This document shows, piece after piece, positions 5,166 to 58,344 of a DNA stretch of 64,000 nt. The stretch spans positions 96,136-160,135 of the forward strand of contig JALHFY010000001.1 of the NCBI GenBank assembly GCA_022837635.1. Reading direction: 5' to 3'. This DNA is from Candidatus Shapirobacteria bacterium. GTDB taxonomy: Bacteria; Patescibacteriota; Microgenomatia; UBA12405. The notes beneath the pieces were generated by a model, which saw only the letters and a list, made by a program, of their open reading frames with translations, ran no database searches and had not been told where the DNA came from. Made by a program: the position numbers and the translations under genes. Numbering within the stretch: position 1 is the first letter of the stretch; every line of letters starts with the position of its first letter.

Positions 5166-5169
5166 GAGA

Positions 5170-27177: not shown

Positions 27178-27211
27178 CTTATAAATGTATTATAGTAAAA
27201 AAAGATAAAAA

Positions 27212-30698: not shown

Positions 30699-31470
30699 AC
30701 ATTTTATCGCTTCATTAATCGGTGCTGGGGCTTTTGCGATGTATTTATCATTACCAATAGAATCAAGTTATTATGGTTTGTTGGTATTGTTGGCGATGGT
30801 AGCTTTTTTGTTTTGGTTTGGTTTGGGGATAATTTTTGAAGGTAGTGTAGATACTAAGATTATGGTGATTCTGTTGCCAGGGCTGTGGACCATAGGTTTT
30901 GGTTTATTCGCTTCTCTATTACCAAATACGCCAGTATATATTACTGGTTCTAGCCTGTTTTTCGGTTTAATTTTATATACGCTGTTTTTAGTAAATAACG
31001 TGTTTTTAGTGGCGATTGGTTATAAAACAGTACCTTTGTATCGGGCAGCTTATACAGTGAGTCTGATTATTTTATTGTTGGCGGCTTTTTTCCTTTTTGA
31101 TTCTCTTTTTTCTTTTAAGTTGCCTTTTTGGGGAAACATGTTGGTGACTTTGGTGATAGCTTTAATGTTGTTTACCAATAATTACTGGAATATAGCGATA
31201 GAATTACCTGATGATGGTAAAGAGAAGGGGAGATGGCCTTATATTATAGTGCCCAGTGTAGTACTGTCTGAACTTATAGGAATACTGTCTTTTTGGCCTG
31301 TAGGAATTTTTAGAGGTTCTGTCTATCTGGTAGTGGTTATATACATAATTTCTGCCTTAATACAGGCAGAAATTAGAGATCGACTGTTTAAGGGAGTAGT
31401 ACGAACTTTTGTTTATATGACCATAGGAGCGCTACTGGCGATGATTTTAACTACCAGGTGGGGTGGATAA
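30661..31470 (+). CDS. Hypothetical polytopic membrane protein
   Basis: Seven to eight hydrophobic helices. No recognisable domain. Confidence 0.4.
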   Translation: MSLPVLIMNKRLKHFIASLIGAGAFAMYLSLPIESSYYGLLVLLAMVAFLFWFGLGIIFEGSVDTKIMVILLPGLWTIGFGLFASLLPNTPVYITGSSLFFGLILYTLFLVNNVFLVAIGYKTVPLYRAAYTVSLIILLLAAFFLFDSLFSFKLPFWGNMLVTLVIALMLFTNNYWNIAIELPDDGKEKGRWPYIIVPSVVLSELIGILSFWPVGIFRGSVYLVVVIYIISALIQAEIRDRLFKGVVRTFVYMTIGALLAMILTTRWGG

Positions 31471-31565
31471 AATAAGATAAATAAATAAAAAACATACCTG
31501 TCTTCGCAAAAAAAAAGCTATGGCATGGCGAAGTAGGGAAGTGGGGGAGGATTTTCACGATATAT

Positions 31566-31591
31566 CCTATAATTTTCATGAATATTATAGG
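31566..31591 (+). promoter_or_regulatory. 26-bp near-perfect palindrome CCTATAAT-T-TTCATGAA-T-ATTATAGG (dif-like Xer site candidate)
   Basis: Read directly from the sequence. Left arm ATCCTATAAT resembles the B. subtilis dif XerC arm TTCCTAGAAT. About 520 bp upstream of the only Xer recombinase gene. Confidence 0.45.
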
Positions 31592-32107
31592 ACAGGGTAG
31601 TGATATAGTATGATATAGTTTGTGTGGAAAACTCAAATTGGCAGCAATAGATCATTTTTGCCGATGAGAGTGGTCCGGGGAGAGGGCTATGAGTCAAGAT
31701 TATATTAAATGAAATAAAAAGACATTGGTGTAAGACAAGAGAGAAGATAAAAGACGGTTATCCCCCTGTGGAGGGGAAGTGAAAAATACTATGTCGCACA
31801 ATGTATCTTTTACGACGTTATGTAAAAGAGAAGTGGAGGGGAGTGGCTGGGATCCTGTGTTTTGGATTTTTTATTTTTTATCTTTATTATTGGTGATTTT
31901 ATTGAGAGCTTATTAAATAAAGGCACTTTTACTCTCCTATTAGCTGTCTGTTGCCTGAGAAAAGTTTAGGCTTAAAAGCTCCTCTTGACTCCCCCAGCCT
32001 CTTTTTTTTTGGATTTATTTTAATACGTGATAAATTTTGCCTATTTATAGGTAAAATTTATATATGACTTCACCAGAGGCCCGTAAACGAACGTTTATGA
32101 CTTTTCT

Positions 32108-33067
32108 GTGCTAGGATTAACTATGGATTTGGATTTGAACACAGCTATTAGGCGTTTTTTGGAACATTTGGAAATAGAAAAGAACTGCTCAAAGCTGACA
32201 GTGAGAAATTATCAACATTATCTGTCGGTGTTAGAAAGGTACTTTCAAAGTAAAGGAATGGAAAAACCGAATGTTTCCGATATAAATCCAGAGACAGTGC
32301 GAGATTTCAGATTGTATTTATCAAGATTACCGGGAACTCACGGTGAAATGAAAGTAGTGACTCAAGGTTATTATGTGATTGCATTGAGGTCTTTTTTGAA
32401 GTGGTTGATTAAAAACGATTATGAAGTAATGCAGCCGGAAAAGATTGATGTGCCTAGAAATAAGGATCATTCTTTGAAATTTTTGAATGCTGAGCAATTA
32501 GAAAGATTACTAAATCAACCCTTACTTTCCACTAAAACTGGCTTGAGAGACAGGGCAATTTTGGAAATGCTGTTTTCCACTGGATTGCGGGTATCTGAAC
32601 TGGTGAGATTGAATCGTGAGCAAATTAACCTAAAGACACGTGAATTTGGTATTATCGGCAAAGGTGGTAAGGCTCGAGTGGTGTTTATATCCCAAAGAGC
32701 AGCGGAATATATTGATAGATACTTAAAAAGTCGGACTGATCATGATGAGGCGATGTTTATCCGTTATGGTGGAAAAAAGGAATTGACTGGTAGTTTAAGG
32801 TTGTCGGCTCGATCGGTGGAGAGGATGGTGAAGCATTATGTCAGATTAGCCAAGTTACCGATTGAGGCTACTCCCCACACCTTACGTCACTCGATGGCCA
32901 CAGACCTATTGAGAGCTGGAGCTGATTTGCGTTCGGTGCAAGAAATTTTGGGACATAAAAATATTGCTACCACTCAAATCTATACTCACGTGACTGATGC
33001 TAGATTACGTGAAGTTCATGAAAAATATCATTTAGGTAATGTGGTTGATTCAAACAAAAAAGATTAA
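32108..33067 (+). CDS. Tyrosine site-specific recombinase, XerC/XerD family
   Basis: N-terminal SAM-like domain (FLEHLEIEKNCSKLTVRNYQHYLS). Catalytic R..HxxR..Y region (HTLRHSMATDLLRAGADLRSVQEILGHKNIATTQIYTHV). Confidence 0.85.
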   Translation: MLGLTMDLDLNTAIRRFLEHLEIEKNCSKLTVRNYQHYLSVLERYFQSKGMEKPNVSDINPETVRDFRLYLSRLPGTHGEMKVVTQGYYVIALRSFLKWLIKNDYEVMQPEKIDVPRNKDHSLKFLNAEQLERLLNQPLLSTKTGLRDRAILEMLFSTGLRVSELVRLNREQINLKTREFGIIGKGGKARVVFISQRAAEYIDRYLKSRTDHDEAMFIRYGGKKELTGSLRLSARSVERMVKHYVRLAKLPIEATPHTLRHSMATDLLRAGADLRSVQEILGHKNIATTQIYTHVTDARLREVHEKYHLGNVVDSNKKD

Positions 33068-33230
33068 TAGCCTATAGTCAGACCCTTTTAGCGAATCTAT
33101 GGGCAAAATTAGTTAAAATGACTCCCCTAGCCTGAATAATGGTCGATTTTTCCCTATTTTAGGTCTTTTTTGAATTTTTGAAGCTGCTTAGCAGTCACTC
33201 CCCTACTCTGCTAATAATGGAAAATATTAT

Positions 33231-33273
33231 ACGAATATCCTATAATTTTGATATAGAAATATCCTATATTTTT
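33231..33273 (+). repeat. Two direct copies of ATATCCTATA(A/T)TTTT, matching the upstream copy at 31563-31577
   Basis: ACGAATATCCTATAATTTTG..ATATCCTATATTTTT downstream of xer, versus ACGATATATCCTATAATTTTC upstream. The second copy overlaps the gyrA stop codon. Confidence 0.5.
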
Positions 33274-35933
33274 TTAGGGTTAGAGTCGGACTCAGGGTTG
33301 ACAGGTAATACAGTTAAAGTACTGACTTTATCATCGCTTTTAAGTCTCATGAGAATCACTCCTTTAGTGTTTCTGGATAAGGTAGGAATGTTTTTAAGAG
33401 GTAGTTTAATAGTAGCGGCCTTGCGACTGACAAAAAGGACTTGATCGTCATTTTCAGTGACAATAGCGGCGCCGGAGATATTGCCAGTTTTTTCAGTAAG
33501 ATGGGAAACTTTAACACCTACTCCACCGCGTTTTTGGAGAGGATAAAGATAGGCATCAGAACGTTTACCAATACCATTTTCAGTAATAGTTAAGAGATGA
33601 CGGAAAAACTTTTTACTGGTTTTTTCGGCTTTGGCAGCGGTGACACTTTGAGGCAGAACATCCAAGCCAACTAAATAATCATTTTCTTTAAGGTTAATAC
33701 CTCGAACGCCGCGGGTGTGTCGACCCATAGGACGAGCATCAGTTTCATTGAAGCGAATACATTTACCTTGATAGGTAACCATAAAAATTTGGTCATTGCC
33801 GGAGCTGAGTTTGGCCCAAATTAATTCATCGTGAGGATCAAGTTTGATGGCGGCTAGGCCGGATTGGCGAACATTTTTGAACTTATCAATAGCAGTTTTT
33901 TTGATGACACCTTTTTTAGTAGCCAGGATAATATAATTAGCGGAATGTCCCTTACTGACGGGTAAAATAGCTTGAACAGTTTCTCCTTGAATAATATTGA
34001 TTAGGTTAATAACGGCTTGACCTTTGGACTGACGACTAGATTCATTGATGTCCCAAACTTTGATTTTGAAACAGCGACCTTTGTTGGTAAAAATCAATAA
34101 ATCATCATGGGTATCGACAAAGAGCATGTTTTCGACTTCGTCTTCGGCTTTGGTAGTCATACCACTGACACCGATACCGCCACGACGTTGAGTCCGGTAG
34201 GTACCCATAGCCACTCGTTTGATATAACCACCGCGGGTAAGAGTTACTAGCGTGGCTTCATTGGGAATAAGGTCTTCGTCAGTGAAGTCTTCAAGAGATT
34301 TGGCGTAAATTTTGGTTTTACGGTCGTCACCATATTTGTTAGTAATTTCCTGGTTTTCAGCTTTTAATACAGCAATCATTTTTTCAGGTACGGTTATAAT
34401 GGCGGTGAGATTGGCAATACTTTGTTGGATATTTTGGTATTCTTCGTCAATTTTTTGACGTTCCAAACCTGAGAGCTTACGCAATTGCATATCTAAAATA
34501 GCTTGGGATTGAAGATCAGTAAAGCCGAATTTCTCCATTAATTTTAATTTAGGATCTTCATCGGCTTTAGTGGCTCTGATGGTTTTAATAACCTCGTCGA
34601 TGATATCCAAGGCTTTTTTGAAGCCTTCCAAAATATGGTTACGAAGATAAGCACTTTTAAGTTCAAAAATAGAGCGACGGCGGATGATACTTTCGCGGTG
34701 TCTAAGGAATAAAAGGAGAATTTGTCTGAGGTTGAGAGTTTGAGGAATGCCGTTGACTAAGGCTAAAATGTTGGCTGAATAGGAAGATTGAAGAGGTGTA
34801 TATTTGTAAAGTTTATTGAGAACAGCTTTAGGTTTGCCGTGCTTTTTAATTTCGGCAACAACTCGGATACCATGTCGATCGGATTCGTCTCGAAGATCGG
34901 AAATACCGATAATTTTTTTATCAGTGACCAATTGGGCGATTTTCCGAATCATTTCGGATTTATTAACTTGATATGGGATTTCGGTAATAACAATTCTGAT
35001 TTTGCCGGATTTAGTTTCTTCGATAGTGGCTTTACCGCGGAGAACAAACTTACCTCGGCCGGTGTTGTACATCTCTAAAATACCGGTTTTTCCGTAAATT
35101 TCTCCGGCGGTGGGAAAATCAGGACCGGTGACAAATTGGGCTAAATCTTCACTGGTAACAGCAGTCTCCACGTTAAAAGAAAGTCTTTCTAGATCTTTGA
35201 CCGGTTTTAAGACTATTTCCTGAGTAGTTAAGTTTTTTTCTAAGATGGGATTGATTTCTAGAGGAGCCTCTTCTTTTTCCAGAGTGCAATTATTGAGAAG
35301 ATGGTCAATTCCGGCACAAAGTTCCTTGAGATTGTGAGGTGGAATTCTGGTGGCCATACCGACAGCAATGCCATCAGCTCCGTTTAAGAGTAGATTGGGA
35401 ATGCGGGCCGGGAGAACTTCTGGTTCCTGGAGAGTAGCGTCAAAATTGTCTTTCATGGGAATAGTGTCTTTATCCAGGTCGGCAATCATTTCCGGAGCAA
35501 TTTTACTCATTTTGACCTCGGTGTAACGCATGGCAGCCGGAGGATCGCCATCAACAGAGCCAAAATTTCCTTGACCGTTAATCAGGGGATAACGCAAAGA
35601 AAAGTTTTGAGCTAAACGGACTAGGGAGCCGTAAACGGCGGCATCACCATGGGGATGGTATTTACCCAAGACTTCACCGACCACTTTAGCTGATTTAGTA
35701 AAGCGGCCGCTAGGTCCCAGATTCATTTGTTCCATGGCATAGAGAATACGACGATGAACTGGCTTAAGACCGTCTCGGATATCAGGTAAAGCTCTTTCAA
35801 CAATGACAGACATGGCATAATCCAGATAGGATTTTTCCATTTCTGGGATAATATCTACCGGAATGATTTTACCGATATTTCCAGTTGAATTGGTTTTATT
35901 AGGAGTATTGTCAGTCATATTTTTAGACATCAA
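33264..35933 (-). CDS. gyrA: DNA gyrase subunit A
   Basis: Active-site region [28 protein letters not shown] and a C-terminal beta-pinwheel. Confidence 0.95.
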
Positions 35934-37863
35934 TATTGGCTAAATGAGCATGAGTAACGATGAATTTTTTACGGGGGGGAACTTCTTCTCCCATCAAGAC
36001 TCTGAAGACTTCGTCGGCTTTAACAGCGTCTTCAATATTGACCTGTTTTAGTTGGCGAGTTTCTGGATTCATAGTAGTTTCCCAAAGTTGTTGAGGATTC
36101 ATTTCTCCCAGACCTTTGTAACGTTGAATGTCATAACTTTTACTAGTGTCAATGCTTTGAAGATAAGCTTCTTTTTCTTCGTCAGTATAGACGTAGTGGA
36201 CGTTTTTACCTTGTTTAATGCGATAAAGTGGTGGCATGGCAATGTAGATATGGCCATTTTCAATTAAACCAGGCAGATGGCGAAAAATAAAGGTCAGAAG
36301 CAGAGTAGCGATATGGGAACCGTCAACGTCGGCGTCAGACATCAAAATCACTCGATGATAACGTAACTTTTCTAAATTAAAGGTATCCCCTATTCCGGTA
36401 CCTAAGGCAATAATAAAGTCTTTGAGTTTATCGGAGTTAACGACTTTATCCAGTCGAGCCCCTTCGGTATTTAAGGCTTTACCCCAGAGAGGTAAAATAG
36501 CTTGAAATTTACGATCACGACCTTGTTTAGCGGAACCACCGGCAGAATCCCCTTCGACAATATAGATTTCACATTCAGCCGGGTTTTTACTCTGACAATC
36601 AGCTAATTTTCCGGGAAGACCCATAGAATCAAAGGCACCTTTACGCATAATAGCGTCTTTGGCGGCTTTAGCGGCTTTACGGATTTGAATAGTTAAAAGA
36701 GCCTTACCAACAATGGTTTTGGCAGTATCAGGATGTTCCTCAAAATAAGTATCAAGTTGCTCTCTGACGATTTTAGCGACAATAGGTTGAACTTCGGAAT
36801 TACCTAGTTTACCCTTGGTCTGACCTTCAAATTGAAGATCTTTACTGCCCATTTTAATGGAAATAACAGCGGTGAGACCTTCACGAACATCGTCACCAGT
36901 GATAGTGTCATTTTTGTTTTTAATTAATTCCTTTCTTTCGGCATAATCTTTAATAGATTTGGTGAGGGCAGTCTTAAAACCAGTCAGATGGGTACCGCCT
37001 TCATGGGTGTTGATAATATTGACAAAGGAAGGAGTATTTTCTTGGAAAGAATCGTTGTATTGGATGGCAATTTCAACGTCGACACCATCACTTTCACCAT
37101 GGAGATAAATCGGCTCATGAAGGACAACTTTATTTTTATTAACTTCTCTCAGTAATGATAAAATGCCACCTTCAAAGTAATAATGATGTTCACTGTCGTG
37201 GCGTTCATCATAATAATGGAAATAAATTTTACTGGTTAAATAGGCTCGATCTTTAAGAGATTTAATAATGGTCTTGTTGTCAAAATTCAGAGTTTCCTTA
37301 AAAATTTGAGAATCGGGATAAAAGGTGGTGGTAGTGCCACTAATGGTTTTAGGAATGAGTTCGTTGATTTTGTCGATATGGGACTGATCAATAGTTTTTA
37401 GAGGTGATTTGACCTTGCCTCTGGAGAATTCTATAGATTGGATTTTACCTTCACGACGAATTTCGACTCGGAAAGTGGAAGAAAGAGCGTTGACACAAGC
37501 AGCACCGACGCCATGAAGACCACCGGAAACTTTGTAAGCAGCGCCTTCAAACTTACCACCAGAGTGGAGAGTGGTCATAATGACTTCGACGGCAGGTTTG
37601 TTGTATTTAGGCATGATATCCACTGGAATTCCCCGACCGTCATCAGCAATAGTGACGGAGTTGTCTTTATGGACAATAACCCAAACATTTTTAGCAAAAC
37701 CAGCCAGGGCCTCGTCGATAGAGTTGTCAATAATTTCTGTTAAACAGTGATGAAGTCCCCGAGTGTCAGTGGAGCCAATGTACATGGCCGGTCGTTTTCG
37801 GACCGGTTCCAGACCTTCAAGAACGATGATTTGATCAGAAGTATATTTTTGAGTATCAGACAT
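35923..37863 (-). CDS. gyrB: DNA gyrase subunit B
   Basis: GHKL ATPase N-terminus ([18 protein letters not shown]), Toprim EGDSAGG, PLRGKILN-like motifs. Confidence 0.95.
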
Positions 37864-38012
37864 AAAAAAGCCTCATTATAGAGGTAATTTCATTCTAACA
37901 GATTAAATTAGCTTTACAAGTGGCAAATTAGACGTAAAGATAGGCAAAATTTTAGTGAAAAACTGTATCAAATTATATCAAAAAATACCTTAAAATTTGG
38001 CCTAAACTTAGG

Positions 38013-38546
38013 TTATTTTTTAACTTTTTCCAAGGACTTGAAGGCGATAAGGGCGGTGGCTAGAAGAACATTGAGGGAAATATTGACACCATACATTGGG
38101 ATTTCAATAATTTGATTACAGAGTTTGAGATTATCGGCAGAGATGCCGGCGACTTCACTACCGGCGACGATAGCCAAAGGAAAAGGATAGTGGTAATGAC
38201 GATAGTCAACAGTGTTTGGACCTTGCTCACAGGCAATAATATGGAAGCCATCTTTTTTAAGTTGTTTGAGACAGTCGGTGGTGGAATTAAAATGTTGCCA
38301 AGGTACCCATTTCCAGGTGCCGACAGAAGCGCGATGAATTTTGAGATTGGGAGGGGTGACAGTGGGGCCACAAAGGTAGATTTTTTGGGCACCTATGGCA
38401 TCGGCTAAACGAAAAAAGGAACCGATATTGTAGGTATCTAAAACATTATCTAAAACTAAGACTAAAGGTTGGCGCGGGATTAGACGTTGTTGTTTTTGCG
38501 ACTTCCCTACCCTGCTCTGACGTAATTGGTGGGAATTGAGTTTCAT
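38013..38546 (-). CDS. SpoU/TrmH-family RNA 2'-O-methyltransferase with basic N-terminal extension
   Basis: SPOUT motifs (LVLDNVLDTYNIGSFFRLADAIGA; IVAGSEVAGIS). The first ~30 codons overlap a GC-rich repeat copy. Confidence 0.75.
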   Translation of the reverse strand: MKLNSHQLRQSRVGKSQKQQRLIPRQPLVLVLDNVLDTYNIGSFFRLADAIGAQKIYLCGPTVTPPNLKIHRASVGTWKWVPWQHFNSTTDCLKQLKKDGFHIIACEQGPNTVDYRHYHYPFPLAIVAGSEVAGISADNLKLCNQIIEIPMYGVNISLNVLLATALIAFKSLEKVKK

Positions 38547-39253
38547 AATTTTTTACCTACAAATCTAATTAGATTGTCATTATCATCGTGGTATATTTTG
38601 CCATTTTCGTCAAAAATGATTATTTGATACTTATTTTCTATTAGTTGACGAAAAGATGATAGTGAGAAAAATCTTTTCTTAATACCAACAGGACTCAGAA
38701 AAAACTCTGTTTCGATTGATTTTGATTGAAGTACTTCGGGATCATTGATGGTATTTACCAGAGCAGCAAAGATACCACCTGTTTTTAGAATACGATTAAT
38801 TTCATCGAATAATTTTTTGGTGGTGGTATTGTCAAAATAATGAAGAGCTAGATGAGAATAAACAATATCAAATGAGGAGTTATTAAAAGGTAATTTTTTA
38901 CTTAAATCTACAATTTGAAAATCAATGTTTTTATCTTTTAAGTTTCTTTTAGAAAAATCCAAAGCATTGACAGCAAAATCGGTACTGGTAACTTGAAAAC
39001 CATTATCCGCAAAAAAACAACTATCTTGACTTTGGCCTGCACCAAGATCAATCAGTTTTCCTTTTTTTGGTAGTAAATTAATGATTTGTTCAGCAAAAAT
39101 AGTTGGTTTAGTTATCCAATATTTTTTATTGTATTCCCGGTGTCTTTGTTCCCAGTAATCAATTGCTTTCATAGTATATTTTACATTAAAAAAGCCCCGC
39201 AATGACGGGGCTTTGATAGTTTTTAATCTAGCAACCGCCGGCTGAAGCGGCAC
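38543..39253 (-). CDS. Class I SAM-dependent methyltransferase
   Basis: Motif I LIDLGAGQSQDSCFFADNGFQVTSTDF. Confidence 0.7.
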   Translation of the reverse strand: MPLQPAVARLKTIKAPSLRGFFNVKYTMKAIDYWEQRHREYNKKYWITKPTIFAEQIINLLPKKGKLIDLGAGQSQDSCFFADNGFQVTSTDFAVNALDFSKRNLKDKNIDFQIVDLSKKLPFNNSSFDIVYSHLALHYFDNTTTKKLFDEINRILKTGGIFAALVNTINDPEVLQSKSIETEFFLSPVGIKKRFFSLSSFRQLIENKYQIIIFDENGKIYHDDNDNLIRFVGKKL

Positions 39254-40223
39254 CTTGAACTTGGTCGGTGGGAGTGTCCAGAGTGGTTTTACATTCCTTG
39301 GGAGATCGATTGAAAGAAGCGCAGACGGCCTCTTTGATAATATTTGGAGTCAATATAGGGGTATAAAGATTTTCCGTAAATATCTCTTTTCCAATTTTAA
39401 GACTGCCTGTGCCATCTTGGGTATAAGCTGATTTTGGCGGAAAGGAGACGTCATTAATGAAAACAGTAGGTGATCCAGAGACATCATTTTGAGTAGTCAG
39501 AGCAATTTCTTTTTCGATTAAACTAATCCCCTCTTTATTGAAGCATTCGGTAATTTTTTGAGTATCAAGACCAGCGGTTTTAGCTTGGGCTTCCCAGCAA
39601 ACATCAGCATTTTCATAATTGCAATTTTGGTTGATATTATCAATAAAGGTCCACCATTGATCTTTATTTTCAAGCATATTCCAGGCGCAAATTTCTCGGA
39701 TATTTTGGTTGGCTTCTTGGCGACCATGGAGAGCCGAGTACATGGTACCATTTTCAGCTTTAACGTAGTTGTTGGTATCCATACATTTGTTATAAGCGTC
39801 GGTAATAGTTTTCTTGCAGTCAGCTTCGTTTTTGAAGTAACCGTTTTGGATGTAAATAGAGCACTGATTAACATCACCGAAATTTTTACAGTAAGCTTGA
39901 AGATTATCGATTTTATTAAAAATATAGCGGGGGACAAAATCGGCTTTATCTTTGAGCAAGTCATAAACTGGGCGGAGAGAATCCTCAATTCGGTTACCCC
40001 AAGGGCAAAAGCTCATGACATAAAAGTCTAATTGGGGTTGATTAGTTTTTTTGGCAGCGAAAACTATGCTTTTACTTTTATCAATAGTGTTGGTGGTACT
40101 ATTCTTTTTCCAGGAATAACCCGAATAAAAGGAGGTGACCAATAGTAACAAAGATAAAATAGCAGCTATAGGAGTGGGAACAAAGATTCCAGATTGATTT
40201 TTAGAAGAAATATTTTTTGCCAT
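39228..40223 (-). CDS. Secreted Cys-rich thioredoxin-fold (DsbA-like) protein with CPWG variant motif
   Basis: N-terminal TM. FYVMSFCPWGNRI resembles the DsbA/Thioredoxin_4 CPxC site with the second Cys replaced by Gly. About 12 additional Cys. Confidence 0.35.
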   Translation of the reverse strand: MAKNISSKNQSGIFVPTPIAAILSLLLLVTSFYSGYSWKKNSTTNTIDKSKSIVFAAKKTNQPQLDFYVMSFCPWGNRIEDSLRPVYDLLKDKADFVPRYIFNKIDNLQAYCKNFGDVNQCSIYIQNGYFKNEADCKKTITDAYNKCMDTNNYVKAENGTMYSALHGRQEANQNIREICAWNMLENKDQWWTFIDNINQNCNYENADVCWEAQAKTAGLDTQKITECFNKEGISLIEKEIALTTQNDVSGSPTVFINDVSFPPKSAYTQDGTGSLKIGKEIFTENLYTPILTPNIIKEAVCASFNRSPKECKTTLDTPTDQVQGAASAGGC

Positions 40224-40241
40224 GTAGACATTAAAGCACAG

Positions 40242-40454
40242 TTATTTAGTCTCTTCAACAATGGAAATAGCACCCACCGGACAGGAACTCACTGCTGATT
40301 GAATACTTTCAGTGATAGTACTGGGTTGTTTTTTAACTTTGGCTTTATAGATAGTAGTATCCATTTCAAAGGTATCGGAATCGATTAAAGGACAAGTGTT
40401 ACAACCGATACAAAGGTCTTGATTGAGAAGTATTTTTGGTGCCATAGAGCTCAT
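40242..40454 (-). CDS. 4Fe-4S ferredoxin
   Basis: CIGCNTCP...CPVGAI cluster-binding motifs in a 70-aa protein. Confidence 0.7.
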   Translation of the reverse strand: MSSMAPKILLNQDLCIGCNTCPLIDSDTFEMDTTIYKAKVKKQPSTITESIQSAVSSCPVGAISIVEETK

Positions 40455-40954
40455 TATAGCAGAGTGCCGTTGATGTAATCTTGGTAGAATTTGCCGGAGT
40501 CTTTGATGGCGGAGAGGAGCATAGTAATCCGGTCCAGAGCATCTTGACGGGAGAGAAATTTGAGTTTATTGGGAAAAAAGTGGAAAATTTCGTTGCGGCC
40601 ATATTTCCAAGCGTTCCAGAGTTTTTCAGCCATTTCCTCCCCACTTCGACTGAGGTCGGCCAGTTTTTGGTAAATAGAAAAACGTTTGTAACGAAGAGAA
40701 GGGTTGAGAGTTTTACCAACTCGAAAACGATCACTTTGATAATTATAATTATCAATAATCCCTAATTTAAGGAAAAAATCCTTCAAATAACCTTCATAAG
40801 CCTTGGACACTGGAGCGACTAAAAAAGAATAGTCATTAACATGGTTTTTTTTAAGATTATCAAGAACCATCAAAGCATCGTCAATCAATGCTAATTGGGA
40901 AGGGGCGAGATGTTTTTTAGCCTGTTTAATTAGGCTGGGAGAAATATCGTTCAT
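40454..40954 (-). CDS. Hypothetical protein, possible HEPN-like (Rx4H motif)
   Basis: GRNEIFH near the C-terminus fits the HEPN Rx4-6H motif. Otherwise unassigned. Confidence 0.3.
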   Translation of the reverse strand: MNDISPSLIKQAKKHLAPSQLALIDDALMVLDNLKKNHVNDYSFLVAPVSKAYEGYLKDFFLKLGIIDNYNYQSDRFRVGKTLNPSLRYKRFSIYQKLADLSRSGEEMAEKLWNAWKYGRNEIFHFFPNKLKFLSRQDALDRITMLLSAIKDSGKFYQDYINGTLL

Positions 40955-41511
40955 TGTGAAAAAATAAGTAATAAGGTAAAAAGAAGATTAAAGGTGGCAA
41001 AGATATAGAGATAGTATTGAAGAGAAGAAGTTGGAAGTTGTTTCTTTTCTCGAGCAAAAAGCCAACTTTTTAAGAATTCAGGATTTTCCCGATAATCATA
41101 ATATTCTTTAAGCAAGAGATGAAGTCCGGTGGCCAAAGTAAAAGCTTTGATAAAAATATTGGGAGTAGAGGTGAAGATAAAAAAAGAAATGAGAGTTAAG
41201 ATGATTTGGAAGAAATAATGGTGGAAAATTAGGCTGGTATGTTGATGGTGAGTTGATTGAAATAACTTAAAAAGTGATTTGAAATCTTTCTTTTTCCAGG
41301 CAGTTAGAGCCAATTGACTTTCTTCAAGTTCAGGATGAAGGAAGAACCAGTAGATGAGATGATCAACTTCGATAAAAACGGAACCTATAAAAAGACCTAA
41401 AAATAGGAAAAAGAATTGATACCAAGCGACACGGTTAAAAATCCAAATAGGTAAGGTAACAGCAAAGACAATAATTGAAGGTAGAAAATAACGTCGAATA
41501 TCGTATTTCAC
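40951..41511 (-). CDS. Hypothetical membrane protein
   Basis: Four to five hydrophobic helices, His-rich loop. ORF only. Confidence 0.35.
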   Translation of the reverse strand: MKYDIRRYFLPSIIVFAVTLPIWIFNRVAWYQFFFLFLGLFIGSVFIEVDHLIYWFFLHPELEESQLALTAWKKKDFKSLFKLFQSTHHQHTSLIFHHYFFQIILTLISFFIFTSTPNIFIKAFTLATGLHLLLKEYYDYRENPEFLKSWLFAREKKQLPTSSLQYYLYIFATFNLLFTLLLIFSQ

Positions 41512-41528
41512 TAATTTATATTAGCAGA

Positions 41529-41843
41529 TTATTTAAGTGTACTTTTAGCTTTTTCCAAACGGAGTTGTTTGAGCTTCCACATGAAGAGAGCGGCTTTGTT
41601 TTTAACAGTGCCGGGACTATGGTCTTTAATATAGTAGAGAGCGGTTTCCAAAAGTTGACGATCTTCGGTTTTGGCCAGACGGATATAAAGAGATTTATGG
41701 TCCCAGTCATCAAGTTCATCGGCTAATTCCAGACCATAGGCTTGATATTCGTTTTTGACATATTTTTTACGTTTATCAAAGTTTTCTTTGAAAAGAGACA
41801 GAGTTTCAGAAATAGGTGTCGGTGCGGATTGTCTTTTGCTCAT
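41529..41843 (-). CDS. Hypothetical protein
   Basis: ORF immediately downstream of tRNA-Ala. No recognisable domain. Confidence 0.35.
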   Translation of the reverse strand: MSKRQSAPTPISETLSLFKENFDKRKKYVKNEYQAYGLELADELDDWDHKSLYIRLAKTEDRQLLETALYYIKDHSPGTVKNKAALFMWKLKQLRLEKAKSTLK

Positions 41844-41917
41844 GGTGGACCTTGGCGGACTCGAACCGCCCTCTTAGCAATGCGAATGCTATGCTCTACC
41901 AGATAAGCTAAAGGCCC
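41844..41917 (-). tRNA. tRNA-Ala (CGC), CCA encoded
   Basis: GGGCCTTTAGCTTATCTGGTAGAGCATAGCATTCGCATTGCTAAGAGGGCGGTTCGAGTCCGCCAAGGTCCACCA. G3:U70 identity pair present. Anticodon loop TTCGCAT. Confidence 0.8.
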
Positions 41918-42435
41918 TATTTTGACAGTTGCTCTATTTTATCAAGAATTTCGGGAACAATGGACTCGATTTGGATTTTTTCGGTGGCTGGTAGAGGTTG
42001 AAGAACATAGTCTTCGGCGAGAATGTTATGATTTATTGGCTTACCGATACCAACACGGATTCGCCAAAAGCCTTGGGTGCCTAAATGATCAATGATGGAT
42101 TTGATACCGTTGTGGCCGGCGGAACCTCGGTCAAATTGGAGTCGCCACTCCCCTATCGGGAGGTCCAAATCATCATGAATGACATAGATATTGTCGGGAG
42201 AAATTTTATAGAAACGGGCGACTAAACTGAGGGGTATACCCGACTCGTTCATGAAGCCGGTAGAGTGGGCAAAAATATTTTTAGATGACTCCCCCACTCT
42301 ACTTTTCAGCTTACTTTTTTCAGAGAGTCGGAGATGATATTTTTGGGCAAATTGCAGGAGAATATTTTGACCTAAATTATGACGAGTGGACTGATATTTG
42401 GTGCCGGGATTACCAAGACCAAAAAATAATTTCAT
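41917..42435 (-). CDS. pth: Peptidyl-tRNA hydrolase
   Basis: MKLFFGLGNPGTKYQSTRHNLG N-terminus and catalytic His region. Confidence 0.9.
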   Translation of the reverse strand: MKLFFGLGNPGTKYQSTRHNLGQNILLQFAQKYHLRLSEKSKLKSRVGESSKNIFAHSTGFMNESGIPLSLVARFYKISPDNIYVIHDDLDLPIGEWRLQFDRGSAGHNGIKSIIDHLGTQGFWRIRVGIGKPINHNILAEDYVLQPLPATEKIQIESIVPEILDKIEQLSK

Positions 42436-42531
42436 TTTGATATACTTTGTATTTAATTTATATATAAGTTTTGTCTAAAGATAGGTTTTATTTAATTTGA
42501 TATATTTATTAGCAGTCTGATACGGAGAGTG

Positions 42532-42933
42532 CTAAAAATTTGCTTGTTCATAAAATTGATTAAGACTGAAAAAGAGGGCTTCACTGTGAAGATAAATTAG
42601 ACTATCACAAAGAGATTGTAAGTGAGCTTTTTGAGACTCAGCAATGACGGGTATGGCGACAATAATTTTGAGTCGAGGGTAAAGTTTGCGGAGGGCTAAA
42701 ATTGGTTTTTCAAAATCAGTAGATTGACTGAGTCCGAGGTCACTGATGATCAATAAATTGGAGTCAACAGGAGCCTGTCGTTGTTCATCTAAAAAGTCTG
42801 ATAATTTTTGTCGGTATTGGTCCAGGTGAGGGTGGGAGGAATTGAGACAAACAACAGTTTTAGCACCAGGAAAATTATCCAAAATTTTTTTAGCCAAAAT
42901 TTGGGCGGAGTCAGAGTAGTTTTTGAAAATCAT
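42532..42933 (-). CDS. Hypothetical protein
   Basis: ORF only. Alpha/beta-like composition. Confidence 0.3.
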   Translation of the reverse strand: MIFKNYSDSAQILAKKILDNFPGAKTVVCLNSSHPHLDQYRQKLSDFLDEQRQAPVDSNLLIISDLGLSQSTDFEKPILALRKLYPRLKIIVAIPVIAESQKAHLQSLCDSLIYLHSEALFFSLNQFYEQANF

Positions 42934-44896
42934 TTTCGGTGATAATTTTAACGCCTAATTTTTTGGCGGCAATTAATTTAGCAGAGTTGGAGCTAGGGTC
43001 ATTGGTGATGAGGTAATTGGTGTGTCGGGTGACAGTGGAGTGAAATTTACCGCCGGAATTTTCAATTTGTTGAACCAAGTCAGCACGGGGTTGAGAGAGA
43101 GTGCCGGTGATGGCAAAGTTGAGACCAGAGAGGGATTTTTTTTGGGCTGAAGGAGTGCTTAAAGTCGTATTGACAAGTATCGATATAATCCATTCTTGCC
43201 TGAAATTTATACCATCAATAATTTTTTGAGCCAAGGTTTTTTGAAAACCTTTTTGAGATAATAAATCTTCAAGAGTTAAATTTAATAGCTTGTCTGGAGT
43301 GTCAAAACCGACCAAAATTAATTGTTGAATGCGGGCAGCAGAGAAATTGGGAATGGCGGCAGCATTGAAAACTTCTTTGAGACTGAGACTTCTTTTGGAA
43401 TCGATTTGGGCCAGGATATTTTTGGCAGATTTTTCGCCGAGATTATCTAAATTGGCAATGTCGTGAAGTTGGAGTTTATAAAAATCGCCCGGTTGTTTAA
43501 CTTTGCCGGAGTGGTAGAGTTTTTCAATAGTTTTATCTGAGAGACCAAGGATATTCAGCCGATCACAGAAAAGTTTGAGAGAACCCAGGATTTGGGGTAA
43601 ACAATGATGGCCATTGGGACACTCTAAGTTTTTGTCAGCACGGTGTAAAGGAGTTTGACAGGCGGGACAATGGGTGGGAATAGTAACGTGGCCGGGGGTA
43701 ACCTTGGTAACCACACTTTCAATATGAGGAATGACATCACCACGACGAGATATTTCAATAATGTCACCCAGATTAAGATTTTTTTTGATGACTAAATCAT
43801 AGTTACCCAGAGAAGCAAAGTTGATGACCGCGCCGGAGATTTCCACTGGTTCAATTTCGGCAACGGGGGTGACGGAGCCCAAAGGGCCGACTTGCCAGAT
43901 AATTTTTTGAATTACACTTTGGTTGGAGTCAGCTGGGAATTTATAAGCCACTTGGTATTTAGGGCGGCCATTTTTTTCACCCAGACTTTGGGCAATATTC
44001 AGATTATTGATTTTGACGACTAAACCATCGATGTCAAAGGGGTAGTCTCCCCTATCTCGGCGTAAAAAATTTTGATAAATTGTTTCCACTTCTTCAAAAC
44101 TGTGACAGAGATGTGATTCCACCGGAGTAAAGCCCAGGTTTTTAAGCAAGTTTATTTTTTCTAGTTCAGTGTCAAGTGTGGGAGTGTTGACAGAAATGTC
44201 GGTAGCGTATAAAGAGCAAAGTTCAGAATACATACCATCCAGGCGTTGAGATAGACCGGAGGCGGCATTGCGAGGATTGGAATAAAATCCCTCCGGTCCC
44301 GATAAAATTGTTTTTTTTACGAGTTGATTTAATTTAATAAAGTCTTTTTTAGTCACCAAGATTTCACAGCGAACGGAACCGGTAAATTTTTTGGCAGTGC
44401 TTAAAACTACTTGTTTCATTTTGACTACATTTTGAGTAATGACATCGCCGGTGTGACCGTCACCTCTGGTAATGGCGTCTACAAGTTGGCCATTTTGATA
44501 TTCGATTTCCAGAGAAATACCGTCACATTTGGGCTGGACCAGAAAATCTTCCCCAATTTCCCTCTTATCCCCTTTTGACAAAGGGGAGGATAAAATTTTC
44601 TTTTTAAGTTCAAAGTAATGGACCAGATCGGAGTAGGTACTGACTTTGTTTTGAGAACCCATAGTGAGAGAGTGGGCTTTTTTCTCCCAGCCGGTGTCGA
44701 AATTGTCATGACCGACTTTGGAAAAGAGCCGATGATAGGGTGCTTTTTTCTTTAAGACAGCCTCAAGAGTATCGTAGGTGTGGTCGTCCATAATGGGCCG
44801 ACCGGTAGTGTAATAAGCTTTTTTGGCGTCGACTAAAATTTCACCTAGTTTTTGAGGAGAAATGCTTTCCAAGTCAAAATCAGCAAGAGAGTACAT
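42911..44896 (-). CDS. ligA: NAD-dependent DNA ligase
   Basis: Adenylation KxDG (QPKCDGISLEIEY), Zn-finger Cys4 (CPACQ...CPNGHHC), HhH and C-terminal BRCT. Confidence 0.9.
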   Translation of the reverse strand: MYSLADFDLESISPQKLGEILVDAKKAYYTTGRPIMDDHTYDTLEAVLKKKAPYHRLFSKVGHDNFDTGWEKKAHSLTMGSQNKVSTYSDLVHYFELKKKILSSPLSKGDKREIGEDFLVQPKCDGISLEIEYQNGQLVDAITRGDGHTGDVITQNVVKMKQVVLSTAKKFTGSVRCEILVTKKDFIKLNQLVKKTILSGPEGFYSNPRNAASGLSQRLDGMYSELCSLYATDISVNTPTLDTELEKINLLKNLGFTPVESHLCHSFEEVETIYQNFLRRDRGDYPFDIDGLVVKINNLNIAQSLGEKNGRPKYQVAYKFPADSNQSVIQKIIWQVGPLGSVTPVAEIEPVEISGAVINFASLGNYDLVIKKNLNLGDIIEISRRGDVIPHIESVVTKVTPGHVTIPTHCPACQTPLHRADKNLECPNGHHCLPQILGSLKLFCDRLNILGLSDKTIEKLYHSGKVKQPGDFYKLQLHDIANLDNLGEKSAKNILAQIDSKRSLSLKEVFNAAAIPNFSAARIQQLILVGFDTPDKLLNLTLEDLLSQKGFQKTLAQKIIDGINFRQEWIISILVNTTLSTPSAQKKSLSGLNFAITGTLSQPRADLVQQIENSGGKFHSTVTRHTNYLITNDPSSNSAKLIAAKKLGVKIITENDFQKLL

Positions 44897-44920
44897 GGGA
44901 TTATTATACTGGAAAATCTA

Positions 44921-44992
44921 CCCCTTAATCCCCTCCTTTGATGAAAGGAGGGGAACATTTGAATATAAAACCCCTCTTTATTCAAAGAGGGG
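44921..44992 (+). repeat. Two GC-rich hairpins (CCCCTCCTTT-GATG-AAAGGAGGGG and CCCCTCTTT-ATTC-AAAGAGGGG)
   Basis: Perfect 10- and 9-bp stems read from the sequence. The first is preceded by CCCCTTAATC, identical to the element at 52031-52064. Confidence 0.7.
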
Positions 44993-45002
44993 TAGGGGTG
45001 AT

Positions 45003-46133
45003 TTAGACATTACTTAGGCAATAATAAGCACCCTTGGTGGAGCCACGTTTTTGGACGACTTTATCATCAATCAGTTTTTTGAGGTCACGCCAAATAGTGT
45101 CATCACTGACCATGGGTAAAAGGGATTTGGCGTCGGGCATGCGGAGACCACCGAATTGTTGCATGTATTCGACTAATTTAATTTGTCTTTCACTAAGATG
45201 AATTTGTTTACCACCTAGTTTTTGTTTGAATTTAAGGTCCCGAGAGAGGGTTTGAACTTTGTCTTTGACCCGAGACAATTCAATGGCTAGGACTTCGGTG
45301 TAATAGGTTACCCAATCAGTAAGGTCGCGTTCAAAGATATCGCTGTCTTTTTCGTGGGTTGATTGAAGAGTGTTGTAATAGGTTTCAGCGTTACGATCAA
45401 AATATTCCTCAATAGAGAAAAGACGGCGAATGTCATAACCTTCAACATAAAGAGGTAAAATACCGAAAGCTCGGGAAACACGGCCATTACCTTCGACAAA
45501 AGGGTGGATGGCGACTAAAATGTATTGGGTAATAGCGGCACGGATAGCGGGATGAATCTCTCTGGATTTGGGCTCGTTGAGCCAGGCAACAAAGTCAGAC
45601 ATTAAATATGGGACTTCAATGGCTGGAGGTGGTCGATGAGCAATTTCTCCGGTTTGGGTATTTTTTAAGACGACTTGTTGGCGACGATATTTACCAATAT
45701 CGGCTTCGTCGATGATTTTGGTAGTAGTTAGTTCGTGGATTTTTTTAATAATGCTTTCGCTATAAAAAAAAGGTCGGTTTTTAGGATCGACTCCCTCTTT
45801 ATATTTTTCCTCAGGTAAGGGTAAACCAGCATCAAAGGTGGCCCAGATTTCTTCAAGGTAATTAATAACATTGCGGTAGTTGATGACTTCCTGAATATCC
45901 CGATCGGCAGCGGTAACTTGGCGGCCTTCGACCAATTTGGCCACGTCTTGGTAAGTTAGGTCATTACCTTCGATACGAGTACCATAGTGAACAGTCCGGA
46001 TGACAGCTTCCTGTTGAAATTGTTTTTCATAGGCAGGAATTAAGGGAGCCTCATCGATAACCGCTTTAGCGGCTTCGAGAGTACCGATGTTTTTTAGAAT
46101 CTGGTTATTAATGGTAAATATCGGAGAAAACAT
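45003..46133 (-). CDS. Fic/DOC-family protein with C-terminal wHTH
   Basis: Canonical Fic motif HPFVEGNGRVSRAF. TRIEGN segment near the N-terminus resembles the auto-inhibitory (S/T)xxxE(G/N) helix. Confidence 0.8.
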   Translation of the reverse strand: MFSPIFTINNQILKNIGTLEAAKAVIDEAPLIPAYEKQFQQEAVIRTVHYGTRIEGNDLTYQDVAKLVEGRQVTAADRDIQEVINYRNVINYLEEIWATFDAGLPLPEEKYKEGVDPKNRPFFYSESIIKKIHELTTTKIIDEADIGKYRRQQVVLKNTQTGEIAHRPPPAIEVPYLMSDFVAWLNEPKSREIHPAIRAAITQYILVAIHPFVEGNGRVSRAFGILPLYVEGYDIRRLFSIEEYFDRNAETYYNTLQSTHEKDSDIFERDLTDWVTYYTEVLAIELSRVKDKVQTLSRDLKFKQKLGGKQIHLSERQIKLVEYMQQFGGLRMPDAKSLLPMVSDDTIWRDLKKLIDDKVVQKRGSTKGAYYCLSNV

Positions 46134-46190
46134 GGTGGCCTTATTATAGCAGTTTTTTTTAAGATGTGAGGAAAAAATGCGGTTAATGGT

Positions 46191-47328: not shown

Positions 47329-49068
47329 ATGCCTGCCGAATTAAAAAATTATAAAAAACTGTCAGAACTCCTTTTAGATAAGGGGGTGATTACCAAGGCT
47401 CAGGCTGAAGAAATCAGCTTGAAGATGGTCAAGAGTGGTGAAAGTGAAGAGGCGATTATTCGGTCAATGAGATTATTTCCGGAAGAAGATTTCCTGAGAT
47501 ATAAGGCAGAATTCTTAAAAATTCCCTTTGTAGATTTGGATGAGGTTGGTTTTTCACCGGAGGCTTTGTCATTAGTGGCCCAGAGTGTGGCGGAAAAGTA
47601 TCATTTGGTCCCCTATCGCATGGATCCCAAGAACAAAATTCTTGAAGTGGCGATGGCTAATCCTCTGGATTTGGAGACAATCGAATTTTTGGAAAAGAAG
47701 ACTGGTCTGCGGATTAAAGCAGTGATGGCGTTGGAGTCAAAAATTGACGCTTTTATCCAAGAAAAATATGAGAGAGAAAAAGGAATTACCTCCGAGGTGA
47801 GCAAGGCTTTGGATGAAAGAAAGGCTGATGAGGCTAAGATTGAAGAGGAAAGCGCTAAAGCGGTTACAACAGAAGCTCCAATTGCCAAAATTGTGAATAC
47901 GATTTTGGCATACGCAGTTCGTTCTCGGGCTTCTGATGTACATATTGAACCGTTAGAAGAAAATGTTAGAGTTAGATATAGAATTGATGGTATTTTACAG
48001 GAAAAATATGTGTTACCTCGAAATGTGCTGGAGGCGGTGGTTTCCCGGATTAAGATTTTAGCTAACTTAAAAATTGATGAAAAAAGAATCCCTCAAGATG
48101 GACGTTTTAATATCAATGTTGATGGTAATGAAGTGGATTTGCGGGTATCAACTTTACCTGTGTCTTATGGTGAAAAGGTGGTAATGCGCTTACTGCGGAA
48201 ATCTTCAAAGGTGCCGTCTTTACCTGATTTAGGCTTAAGAGGTTTAGCTTTGAAGAATTTGATTGAGTCAATTGAGAGACCACACGGAATTATTATTGTT
48301 TGTGGACCAACAGGTTCAGGTAAAACCACGACCCTCTATTCAATTTTAGACAAGGTGGCGACACCAAAAGTCAATGTAGTTACGATTGAAGATCCGGTGG
48401 AGTATCAAATGAAGGGAGTTAATCAGGTTCAAGTGAATGTCCAAGCAGGTTTAACTTTTGCCTCGGCTTTGAGGTCATTTTTACGGCAGGATCCAAATAT
48501 CATGATGGTAGGAGAAATTCGGGATACAGAAACGGCGGAGCTAGCAATTAATGCGGCTTTAACTGGGCATTTAGTGTTTTCAACTTTACACACCAATGAT
48601 GCAGCGGGAGCACCACCGCGGATGTTGGATATGGGGGTGGAGCCATTTTTGTTAATTTCAGCTTTGACTTGCGTGGTGGCTCAGCGGGTACTGAGGAGAC
48701 TATGCACTGAATGTCGTCAATTTGTAGAAATTGATCCAGGAACATTGAGTGAGCTCAAAGAAACTTTGGGACCGATTTATGGGATGCTTGAAGAGAAGGC
48801 TAAAAAAGAAGGTAAGGTGTTAAAACTGCCTAAGGCAGTAGGGTGTCCAAAATGTAATAATACCGGTTATATGGGGAGAATTGCTATTTATGAAGTAATG
48901 CCGATTACAGAAAAAATTAGTAAAATGATAGTAGAGCATGCGGCGGCATCGGCGATTCAAAAACAGGCAATTGAAGAAGGGATGTTGACCATGAAACAAG
49001 ATGGTTACGTTAAAGTTTTAGAAGGAATTACTACCGTAGATGAAGTGCTACGGGTAGCACAATATTAA
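47329..49068 (+). CDS. pilB: Type IV pilus assembly ATPase PilB (GspE family)
   Basis: GspE N-terminal domain, Walker A GPTGSGKTTTLYS, Asp/His boxes, tetracysteine (CTECRQ...CPKCNNTG). Confidence 0.9.
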   Translation: MPAELKNYKKLSELLLDKGVITKAQAEEISLKMVKSGESEEAIIRSMRLFPEEDFLRYKAEFLKIPFVDLDEVGFSPEALSLVAQSVAEKYHLVPYRMDPKNKILEVAMANPLDLETIEFLEKKTGLRIKAVMALESKIDAFIQEKYEREKGITSEVSKALDERKADEAKIEEESAKAVTTEAPIAKIVNTILAYAVRSRASDVHIEPLEENVRVRYRIDGILQEKYVLPRNVLEAVVSRIKILANLKIDEKRIPQDGRFNINVDGNEVDLRVSTLPVSYGEKVVMRLLRKSSKVPSLPDLGLRGLALKNLIESIERPHGIIIVCGPTGSGKTTTLYSILDKVATPKVNVVTIEDPVEYQMKGVNQVQVNVQAGLTFASALRSFLRQDPNIMMVGEIRDTETAELAINAALTGHLVFSTLHTNDAAGAPPRMLDMGVEPFLLISALTCVVAQRVLRRLCTECRQFVEIDPGTLSELKETLGPIYGMLEEKAKKEGKVLKLPKAVGCPKCNNTGYMGRIAIYEVMPITEKISKMIVEHAAASAIQKQAIEEGMLTMKQDGYVKVLEGITTVDEVLRVAQY

Positions 49069-57779: not shown

Positions 57780-57826
57780 TATAGTTCCTTTACTTAAGAC
57801 ATCTTTGTCTTGTATAATCTTTAAGT

Positions 57827-58342: not shown

Positions 58343-58344
58343 TT

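Follow-up and report, generated by a model that had tools for sequence, protein, structure and literature searches.

A lone Xer recombinase gene and a candidate dif-type site in a conserved non-coding island of Candidatus Shapirobacteria genomes

What is the role of a single Xer-type tyrosine recombinase gene set behind a long gene-free stretch in the chromosome of a Candidatus Shapirobacteria bacterium (Microgenomates, candidate phyla radiation, CPR)? CPR bacteria, or Patescibacteria, make up a large part of bacterial diversity, and to our knowledge almost nothing is known about how their chromosomes are maintained. The gene was analysed within a window of 64 kb, by which we mean the whole stretch of DNA under study. 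An original prediction, made from the sequence of this window, had compared the locus to the XerS/difSL and XerH/difH systems, in which a lone Xer lies beside its own site. The features it described are present: one xer gene, a long gene-free stretch, a palindrome, a 15-mer on both sides of xer and a GC hairpin. Its general idea is supported at the level of a predicted site, located elsewhere in the stretch than proposed. We consider it probable, with moderate confidence, that the locus is a single-Xer/dif-type module comprising a recombinase gene, a candidate recombination site and a conserved flanking region of accessory or regulatory nature. The features concerned are the following:

31471 to 32122, no strand assigned: conserved non-coding island between a membrane-protein gene and xer, with no Pfam-supported open reading frame (ORF)
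31791 to 31818, plus strand: candidate core site ATGTCGCACAA / TGTATC / TTTTACGACGT, 28 bp, 11-6-11, with inverted arms and an asymmetric 6-bp centre
32123 to 33067, plus strand: xer, coding a XerD/XerA-like tyrosine recombinase of 314 aa whose catalytic motifs are intact
33264 to 35933, minus strand: gyrA, convergent with xer, stop codon at 33264-33266

The candidate core site has the 11-6-11 layout of arms and centre that defines dif sites (PMC2958812). The start of xer is 304 bp away, and the palindrome first put forward as the site about 200 bp. In the window it is single-copy, the next-best match to its 22-bp core having 6 mismatches, and no second full site or right half-site was found near the locus. 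Relatives were collected by scanning one genome per species with the Xer protein, which gave 75 loci, the closest being Candidatus Shapirobacteria (UBA1420, for instance, at 98% identity). From these searches, 35 Shapirobacteria loci were retrieved by Xer protein similarity (64-98% identity), the site sequence not being used in the selection. All 35 have a single copy of the core, always pointing the same way and located upstream of xer at a distance of 290-490 bp, and its 22 bp show no more than 2 substitutions. One copy was likewise counted in every locus examined, over lengths of 2-15 kb.

The pattern of substitutions was analysed on 137 distinct copies of the core. Counted from the centre, offsets 4, 5, 7 and 9-12 are mirror-symmetric between the arms, and at offset 12 a co-variation from G:C to T:A is seen (126 vs 8). 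At offset 8, where C or T stands opposite G or A, all four combinations occur at chance frequency, hence a hairpin is not what selection keeps. The 6-bp centre is both asymmetric and invariant. Three more distant loci, L042-L044, whose Xer is 54-57% identical, have at the same place a palindrome with fewer imperfections, GTCGTAAATTGTATCTTTTACGAC. A small ORF starting inside the core (ATG TCG CAC AAT, coding MSHN) was considered and rejected for the Shapirobacteria clade, since the ATG becomes ATA, ACG or ACT in relatives and the core is thus not a conserved ORF start.

The core sequence TCGYACAATGTATCTTTTRCGA was found once each on at least 120 metagenome contigs. On about 70% of them xer lies downstream in the same direction. 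Around 24 distinct contexts have space for xer yet contain none; their flanks are unrelated and lack the blocks 2 and 3 described below. Several of these unlinked cores stand between long convergent gene blocks (L151 +|-------, L195 +|------, L169 ++|---------). We also observed that unlinked cores often have on one side a TraG/TrwB-like ATPase gene (Pfam type IV coupling-protein families) and on the other a gene for an FtsQ-like cell-division protein, a neighbourhood seen among loci L128/L164, L195, L093, L166, L160, L123, L135, L138 and L169.

The recombinase was characterised by profile and structure comparisons. It contains a Pfam Phage_integrase domain (E = 5.6e-43) and an N-terminal SAM-like domain. 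Among solved structures it comes closest to E. coli XerD (1a0p, E = 6e-41), followed by P. abyssi XerA (4a8e, E = 8e-37), and the PDB XerH matches only at E = 6e-13. Aligned to 1a0p, it presents the complete catalytic R-K-H-R-H/W-Y set (GLRVSEL, GKGGK, HxLRH, GH, IYTH), and the residues RQ..QQ by which XerD contacts FtsK read RE..EK in the Xer of the window. Among the NCBIfam models, the XerC, XerD and XerA scores are 238, 231 and 225.9 bits, respectively; only the XerA cut-off (220) is passed, the higher XerC and XerD scores being under their own cut-offs. The XerS model yields 129.9 bits for a cut-off of 267. By these profile and structure matches the protein appears to group with XerD and XerA rather than with XerS or XerH. 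The claim that only one Xer is encoded holds within the window, where a phmmer search of Xer against all six-frame ORFs recovered nothing except itself.

The ORF was called at 32108-33067. The real start is probably the ATG at 32123, which is favoured by an AGGA located 6 nt upstream and by the exact 314-aa product being called as a gene on 11 public contigs. With this start the gene-free stretch becomes 31471-32122, i.e. 652 bp. On a crude gene map it is one of four gaps above 400 bp in the window (711, 652, 566 and 495 bp), representing about 11% of a total of roughly 5.9 kb of intergenic DNA.

The gene order was then compared among relatives. The succession lytR (coding a LytR_C protein), yebC, a gene for a 269-aa membrane protein, the island, xer, gyrA and gyrB, the last two on the opposite strand, is kept in 35/35 loci, down to 64% Xer identity; xer and its flank thus sit between the membrane-protein gene and gyrA in every case. 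The gap occupied by the island measures 557-816 bp in 28 of the 35. In the other 7, ordinary genes are inserted upstream of the island, the DNA inserted in these longer gaps encoding phosphate acetyltransferase (pta) and an ABC transporter. Given the same gene order in all 35 loci, xer is a core, vertically inherited chromosomal gene and not a mobile cassette.

The islands were compared by blastn and by a MAFFT alignment of the 35 sequences. Nine blocks are conserved while the remaining sequence is variable. The conservation of both the length and the nine blocks across 35 genomes supports a function for the long non-coding stretch. The blocks are:

31533 to 31550, plus strand: block 1, G-rich GTAGGGAAGTGGGGGAGG (GTAGGGAAGTGG...)
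31552 to 31580, plus strand: block 2, promoter-like, TTTTCAC-N7-CCTATAAT-TTTCAC, near-invariant in relatives and including the 15-mer at 31562-31576
31601 to 31634, plus strand: block 3, TGATATAG-N2-TGATATAG then TGTGGAAAA (DnaA-box-like TGTGGAWAA), the most invariant block after the core site
31762 to 31776, no strand assigned: block 4, small G+C hairpin CCCCC-TGTGG-AGGGG (CCCCCTGTGGAGGGG), 15 nt upstream of the core site
31790 to 31816, plus strand: block 5, invariant TATGTCGCACAATGTATCTTTTACGAC, carrying the candidate core site
31830 to 31846, plus strand: block 6, G-rich GAAGTGGAGGGGAGTGG (GAAGTGGAGGGGAG), conserved
31855 to 31890, no strand assigned: block 7, A+T-rich, with short tandem A+T repeats in relatives
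31985 to 32000, plus strand: block 8, TTGACTCCCCCAGCCT (TTGACTCCCC...) then a T run, first member of the ACTCCCC repeat family
32030 to 32122, plus strand: block 9, conserved, predicted from its sequence to be the xer promoter and leader

Block 1 is the reverse complement of the ACTCCCCTA motifs found to the right of the site (ACTCCCCTAC being its reverse complement). The distance between block 3 and the core ranges from 172 to 212 bp, with a median of 199 on 82 distinct loci, though the sequence in between varies; helical phasing was looked for over this range of spacings and no period was prominent. Block 6 is predicted to pair with block 8, G-U and A-C cases being mixed. Block 9 contains the palindrome ATAAATTTTGCCTAT/ATAGGTAAAATTTAT, a conserved TGACTTCACCAGAGGCCC, the motif GTAAACG-AA-CGTTTA and the AGGA ribosome-binding site. 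Just outside the island, the 3' part of the membrane-protein gene comprises a perfect 12-6-12 palindrome at 31346-31375 (TAATTTCTGCCT / AGGCAGAAATTA), retained in close relatives only.

From these elements we infer the following scheme for the binding and cleavage of the site by Xer and for its biological role. Two Xer monomers would bind the inverted arms of about 9-11 bp, GTCGCACAA and its imperfect mirror TTTTACGAC, and strand exchange would proceed across the asymmetric centre TGTATC. The outcome would be the resolution of chromosome dimers or, otherwise, the recombination of two site copies. The ~250 bp on the left of the core (TTTTCAC, CCTATAAT, two TGATATAG and TGTGGAWAA), together with the G-rich motifs, could represent conserved binding sites for proteins, or promoters. 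Their role may be to govern the reaction, or transcription nearby, as the accessory sequences and the Pcer promoter of cer do.

Arm sequences were also detected next to xer outside the Shapirobacteria. In other lineages, a left half-site GTCGCACAAT(G/A)T is located 60-220 bp upstream of xer, often overlapping a TTGACA-like, and thus -35-like, hexamer. These left half-sites form a second link between the arm sequence and xer, and suggest an autoregulation of Xer in related lineages, in which Xer would probably bind single left-arm copies at its own promoter. In two Parcubacteria-type loci, L062 (1099-1113) and L065 (5977-5991), the left arm ATGTCGCACAATAT is in frame with the xer start (MSHNI...), and its nucleotides are identical despite an identity of only about 48% between these proteins and the Xer of the window.

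Such half-sites raise the possibility that the 28-bp element is a regulatory operator only, bound by Xer or by another DNA-binding protein, without any recombination. Their overlap with -35-like hexamers of xer attests to a regulatory use of the arm sequence, and the element, as detailed below, is not at a skew switch. However, in the window it stands about 300 bp upstream of xer, past the likely promoter, and the full site is conserved where no xer is nearby, including between convergent genes, where there is nothing to regulate. Moreover, an operator does not need an invariant asymmetric 6-bp centre. We therefore rate a purely regulatory operator as rather unlikely.

The palindrome highlighted by the original prediction, and the repeats thought to bracket xer, belong to other motif families, located as follows:

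31565 to 31592, no strand assigned: palindrome made of two face-to-face CCTATAAT boxes, arms 31565-31578 and 31579-31592, 93% complementary
33119 to 33133, plus strand: TGACTCCCCTAGCCT motif, 52 nt past the xer stop
33195 to 33209, plus strand: TCACTCCCCTACTCT motif, second copy in the spacer of the same repeat family
33226 to 33276, no strand assigned: boxes of the xer-gyrA spacer, with TGATATAG at 33249-33256 and 15-mer copies at 33235-33249 and 33259-33273

In the 35-island alignment only the left CCTATAAT box of the palindrome is conserved, the inverted right copy being absent in about half of the relatives. The boxes vary in number and direction, and some relatives have extra direct copies upstream. 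The 15-mer ATATCCTATAATTTT occurs exactly at 31562 and 33235 and with 1 mismatch at 33259, this third copy overlapping the gyrA stop codon; no further match with fewer than 3 mismatches exists in the 64 kb. A second repeat family, TGACTCCCC(C/T)AGCCT, which had gone unnoticed, is found at 31986, 33119 and 33195, with 7 matches at 3 mismatches or fewer for 0.93 expected. Most relatives have ACTCCCCTA(C/G)YCT in the xer-gyrA spacer, often exactly 143 nt from the gyrA stop, and a CCTATAAT box is present in the spacer of about 22 of 39 loci. Since the box and the ACTCCCCTA motif recur in the spacer of most relatives, the flanking repeats correspond to conserved motif classes and not to att duplications.

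Elsewhere in the window, TATAAT stands 9-12 nt before start codons, with no recognisable -35, at 37875-37880, 46143-46148, 44903-44908 and 27189-27194 (minus), for example before gyrB. This placement suggests leaderless or very short-leader mRNAs in this organism. It is also the reason why the CCTATAAT boxes are best read as -10 promoter elements. The alternative raised together with the original prediction, that the repeats are nothing more than generic promoter elements, agrees with this reading of the box; the full 15-mer is confined to the locus within the 64 kb. In the spacer, two back-to-back -10-like boxes, ATTATA at 33226-33231 (minus) and TATAAT at 33241-33246 (plus), are 9 bp apart; if active, they would produce antisense RNA against the 3' ends of both xer and gyrA.

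According to the original prediction, the palindrome at 31565-31592 would be a terminus dif site and xer a cassette integrated between ATATCCTATAATTTT direct repeats. The palindrome and the repeats do exist, genes converge at the locus, and TCCTATAAT resembles TTCCTAGAAT of the left arm of B. subtilis dif (PMC3025954). Yet about half of the relatives lack the right arm, and the boxes, variable in number and direction, resemble -10 promoter elements; as a site, 31791-31818 fits far better. The cassette reading fails on the synteny fixed in 35/35 genomes and on the absence of a second core, and the variable insertions are ordinary genes (pta, ABC transporter) lying outside the repeats. Neither the variable presence nor the dif-like att repeat of an integrated cassette, or of an integrative mobile element exploiting Xer (IMEX), was observed. 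Nor is there a skew switch, the check proposed for a terminus near 31.5 kb having given GC skew at third codon positions (GC3 skew) of the same sign on both sides. We thus hold this model to be very improbable; the palindrome and the flanking 15-mers are best read as a promoter-like box family, neither dif site nor att repeats.

Several observations weigh against the single-Xer/dif-type reading. The invariance of the core in the metagenome loci follows from the way the search was constructed. The identity of the candidate to E. coli dif, 16/28, is not unusual, 327 28-mers of this A+T-rich window reaching 15 or more. No phage or integrated element with the core site was found in the locus searches or in viral contigs, the latter giving no match to TCGYACAATGTATCTTTTRCGA. 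In the unlinked loci, GGGRAG motifs on either side are oriented towards the core (+21/-2 upstream, +10/-21 downstream), which speaks for the reading, but in the window their polarity is confounded with gene direction. Finally, the site is away from any replichore boundary, unlike canonical dif, difSL and archaeal dif. Two measures were set aside: identity to E. coli, B. subtilis and Frankia dif was rejected as a statistic, being not discriminating in an A+T-rich window, and GGGRAG as a window-wide signal similar to the FtsK-orienting polar sequences (KOPS) was judged not decisive, its polarity tracking gene direction.

The position relative to replication was deduced from the skew. GC skew is positive across the whole window. 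On each flank of xer, and whichever their coding strand, genes have a top-strand GC3 skew of +0.45 to +0.72, with +0.60 for the membrane-protein gene, +0.45 for xer itself, +0.53 for gyrA and +0.49 for gyrB. Because the sign is the same on both sides, no replichore boundary lies within about 30 kb of the locus. No skew switch was seen in any Shapirobacteria locus either, nor in the strongly skewed unlinked loci L093, L166 and L123. The terminus location of Xer/dif systems is therefore not found at this locus; some unlinked loci do have convergent gene blocks at the site.

The same data bear on a replication origin. The island has features of one: TGTGGATAA is a perfect DnaA-box complement in many relatives (the TGTGGAWAA of block 3), A+T-rich tandem repeats are present, and gyrB and gyrA are in the immediate neighbourhood. 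Nevertheless, GC3 skew keeps its sign across the locus, genes converge on it rather than diverge, the DnaA-box-like element is single, and neither DnaA nor DnaN was found among the roughly 45 window ORFs scanned against Pfam. An origin at the island is extremely improbable in our view.

To the right of the island, 14 minus-strand genes form a block at 33264-46133 (gyrA, gyrB, SpoU methylase, ligA, Fic and others) whose arrangement is conserved in the clade. The 5 genes of this block that were tested lie on the C-rich strand, with a coding GC3 skew of about -0.5, and would run head-on to replication if the G-rich strand is the leading one.

The island was also considered as a possible RNA gene. 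The scan for a known small RNA found no match in it: over the window Rfam detects only three tRNAs, and for 31300-33400 it gives no credible hit even with E allowed up to 10. A small RNA (sRNA) of about 200 nt, beginning at the CCTATAAT promoter (31566-31573) and ending with the hairpin (31762-31776), could nonetheless be what the island mainly encodes, and it could coexist with a recombination site. Its conserved 5' part UGAUAUAG...UGUGGAAAAC, where a promoter-like box is followed by a conserved block, is consistent with such a transcript, and there is a precedent in cer, where a promoter internal to the site drives the Rcd RNA (PMC5357621). The hairpin, with differing stem sequences, recurs 15-20 nt before the core in xer-linked loci, with a mean z of -1.2 vs -0.5 in unlinked loci. 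However, this hairpin signal is the same on both strands, no U run follows the hairpin in the window, and changes in the CTATATCA arm are uncompensated. RNAalifold gave -5.8 kcal/mol and almost no consensus structure for the whole island, and 0.0 with no consensus structure for the putative ~200-nt RNA (82 sequences). In single-sequence folding, the minus strand reaches a z of -4.15, which speaks for a structured RNA and which we attribute to the G-rich/C-rich inverted motifs, whereas the plus strand is at only -0.93. An sRNA as the main product of the island is in sum a tentative possibility, somewhat improbable.

We then compared the putative single-Xer/dif-type module with known systems. 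Single-recombinase Xer systems are noted for having gene and site side by side (PMC5357621). With XerS/difSL of streptococci and lactococci and XerH/difH of Helicobacter and Campylobacter, the locus shares one recombinase gene beside an imperfectly palindromic site (PMC5357621). XerS, however, is about 356 aa long and its site has 31 bp, of which 11 form the centre, against 314 aa and a 6-bp centre here; the centre of difH measures 6-10 bp. The ~300 bp between the Shapirobacteria site and its gene count as a difference from both systems, and xerS/difSL lies at the terminus (PMC2958812), whereas the Shapirobacteria locus is not at a skew switch.

The likeness to archaeal XerA/dif lies in a single Xer, a 28-bp 11-6-11 site with near-symmetric arms, interspecies conservation and flanking conserved inverted repeats (PMC2958812). 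It may extend to the protein, which passes the NCBIfam XerA cut-off, although it is a bacterial (CPR) protein and the XerC and XerD models score higher. Archaeal dif is not beside xerA and lies in termination regions (PMC2958812), whereas the Shapirobacteria site is beside xer and away from any skew switch. With XerCD/dif of E. coli and B. subtilis, the common points are the 11-6-11 layout, a centre TGTATC close to the TGTATA of E. coli and XerD as the nearest structure; CGCAcAATGTAT resembles CGCAtAATGTAT in the XerC arm and centre of E. coli dif (PMC3025954). It differs from that system in the one recombinase gene seen, in a right arm that mirrors the left, unlike the XerD arm, in the altered FtsK-contact residues and in a site that is not at a skew switch.

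The plasmid sites cer (ColE1) and psi (pSC101) combine a short core with about 180 bp of non-coding accessory DNA bearing protein-binding sites, with an sRNA promoter in cer, and act independently of a terminus (PMC5357621). Similarly, the Shapirobacteria core has about 250 bp of conserved motifs on one side, which stand 170-260 bp from it at a near-fixed distance and for which an accessory role may be proposed by analogy. In contrast, the Shapirobacteria locus belongs to a chromosome, sites for ArgR, ArcA or PepA were not recognised in it, and unlinked copies of the core lack these blocks. Extending the analogy, the Shapirobacteria Xer site might work off-terminus without FtsK guidance, the ~250-bp island acting like the accessory DNA of cer and psi, through bound proteins and possibly a site-encoded RNA, so as to allow dimer-to-monomer recombination only. 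We regard this extension as speculative and quite unlikely; if true, a minimal bacterial chromosome would have adopted a plasmid-style, topology-filtered dimer resolution.

Smyshlyaev et al. 2021 already placed the Xer-related recombinases of candidate phyla in a 'Cand' subgroup (PMC8138268). In the searchable literature we found no target site for 'Cand'-type proteins, no mention of the present site and no dif in Patescibacteria. The 28-bp candidate is concrete, conserved over many uncultured lineages and directly testable with the 314-aa protein, and as a landmark it could help to close and orient CPR genomes. Should complete genomes confirm its mid-replichore position, the rule of a terminus-bound dif in bacteria would be called into question, and another way of giving recombination its direction would be suggested.

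Two further observations concern regions distant from the island. A 'DHTTV' dnaA-like match at 5050-6489 was rejected, the ORF being really a dockerin protein (479 aa) and the match a chance mimic of the DnaA signature. It opens a group of surface proteins at 5050-8364 (a dockerin protein, a cohesin and LPXTG-anchor protein, and a dockerin and purple-acid-phosphatase-N protein) that resembles a cellulosome-like surface module in a CPR genome. At 56604-61091, four plus-strand ORFs (391, 171, 662 and 257 aa) with no Pfam match lie inside a type IV pilus cluster (PilB-, PilT-, PilC- and PilM-like; 47329-51340 and 61119-62147). The 391- and 662-aa ORFs have top-strand GC3 skews of -0.15 and -0.36, respectively, opposite to the other 22 genes tested, and the region may be a recent inversion or acquisition.

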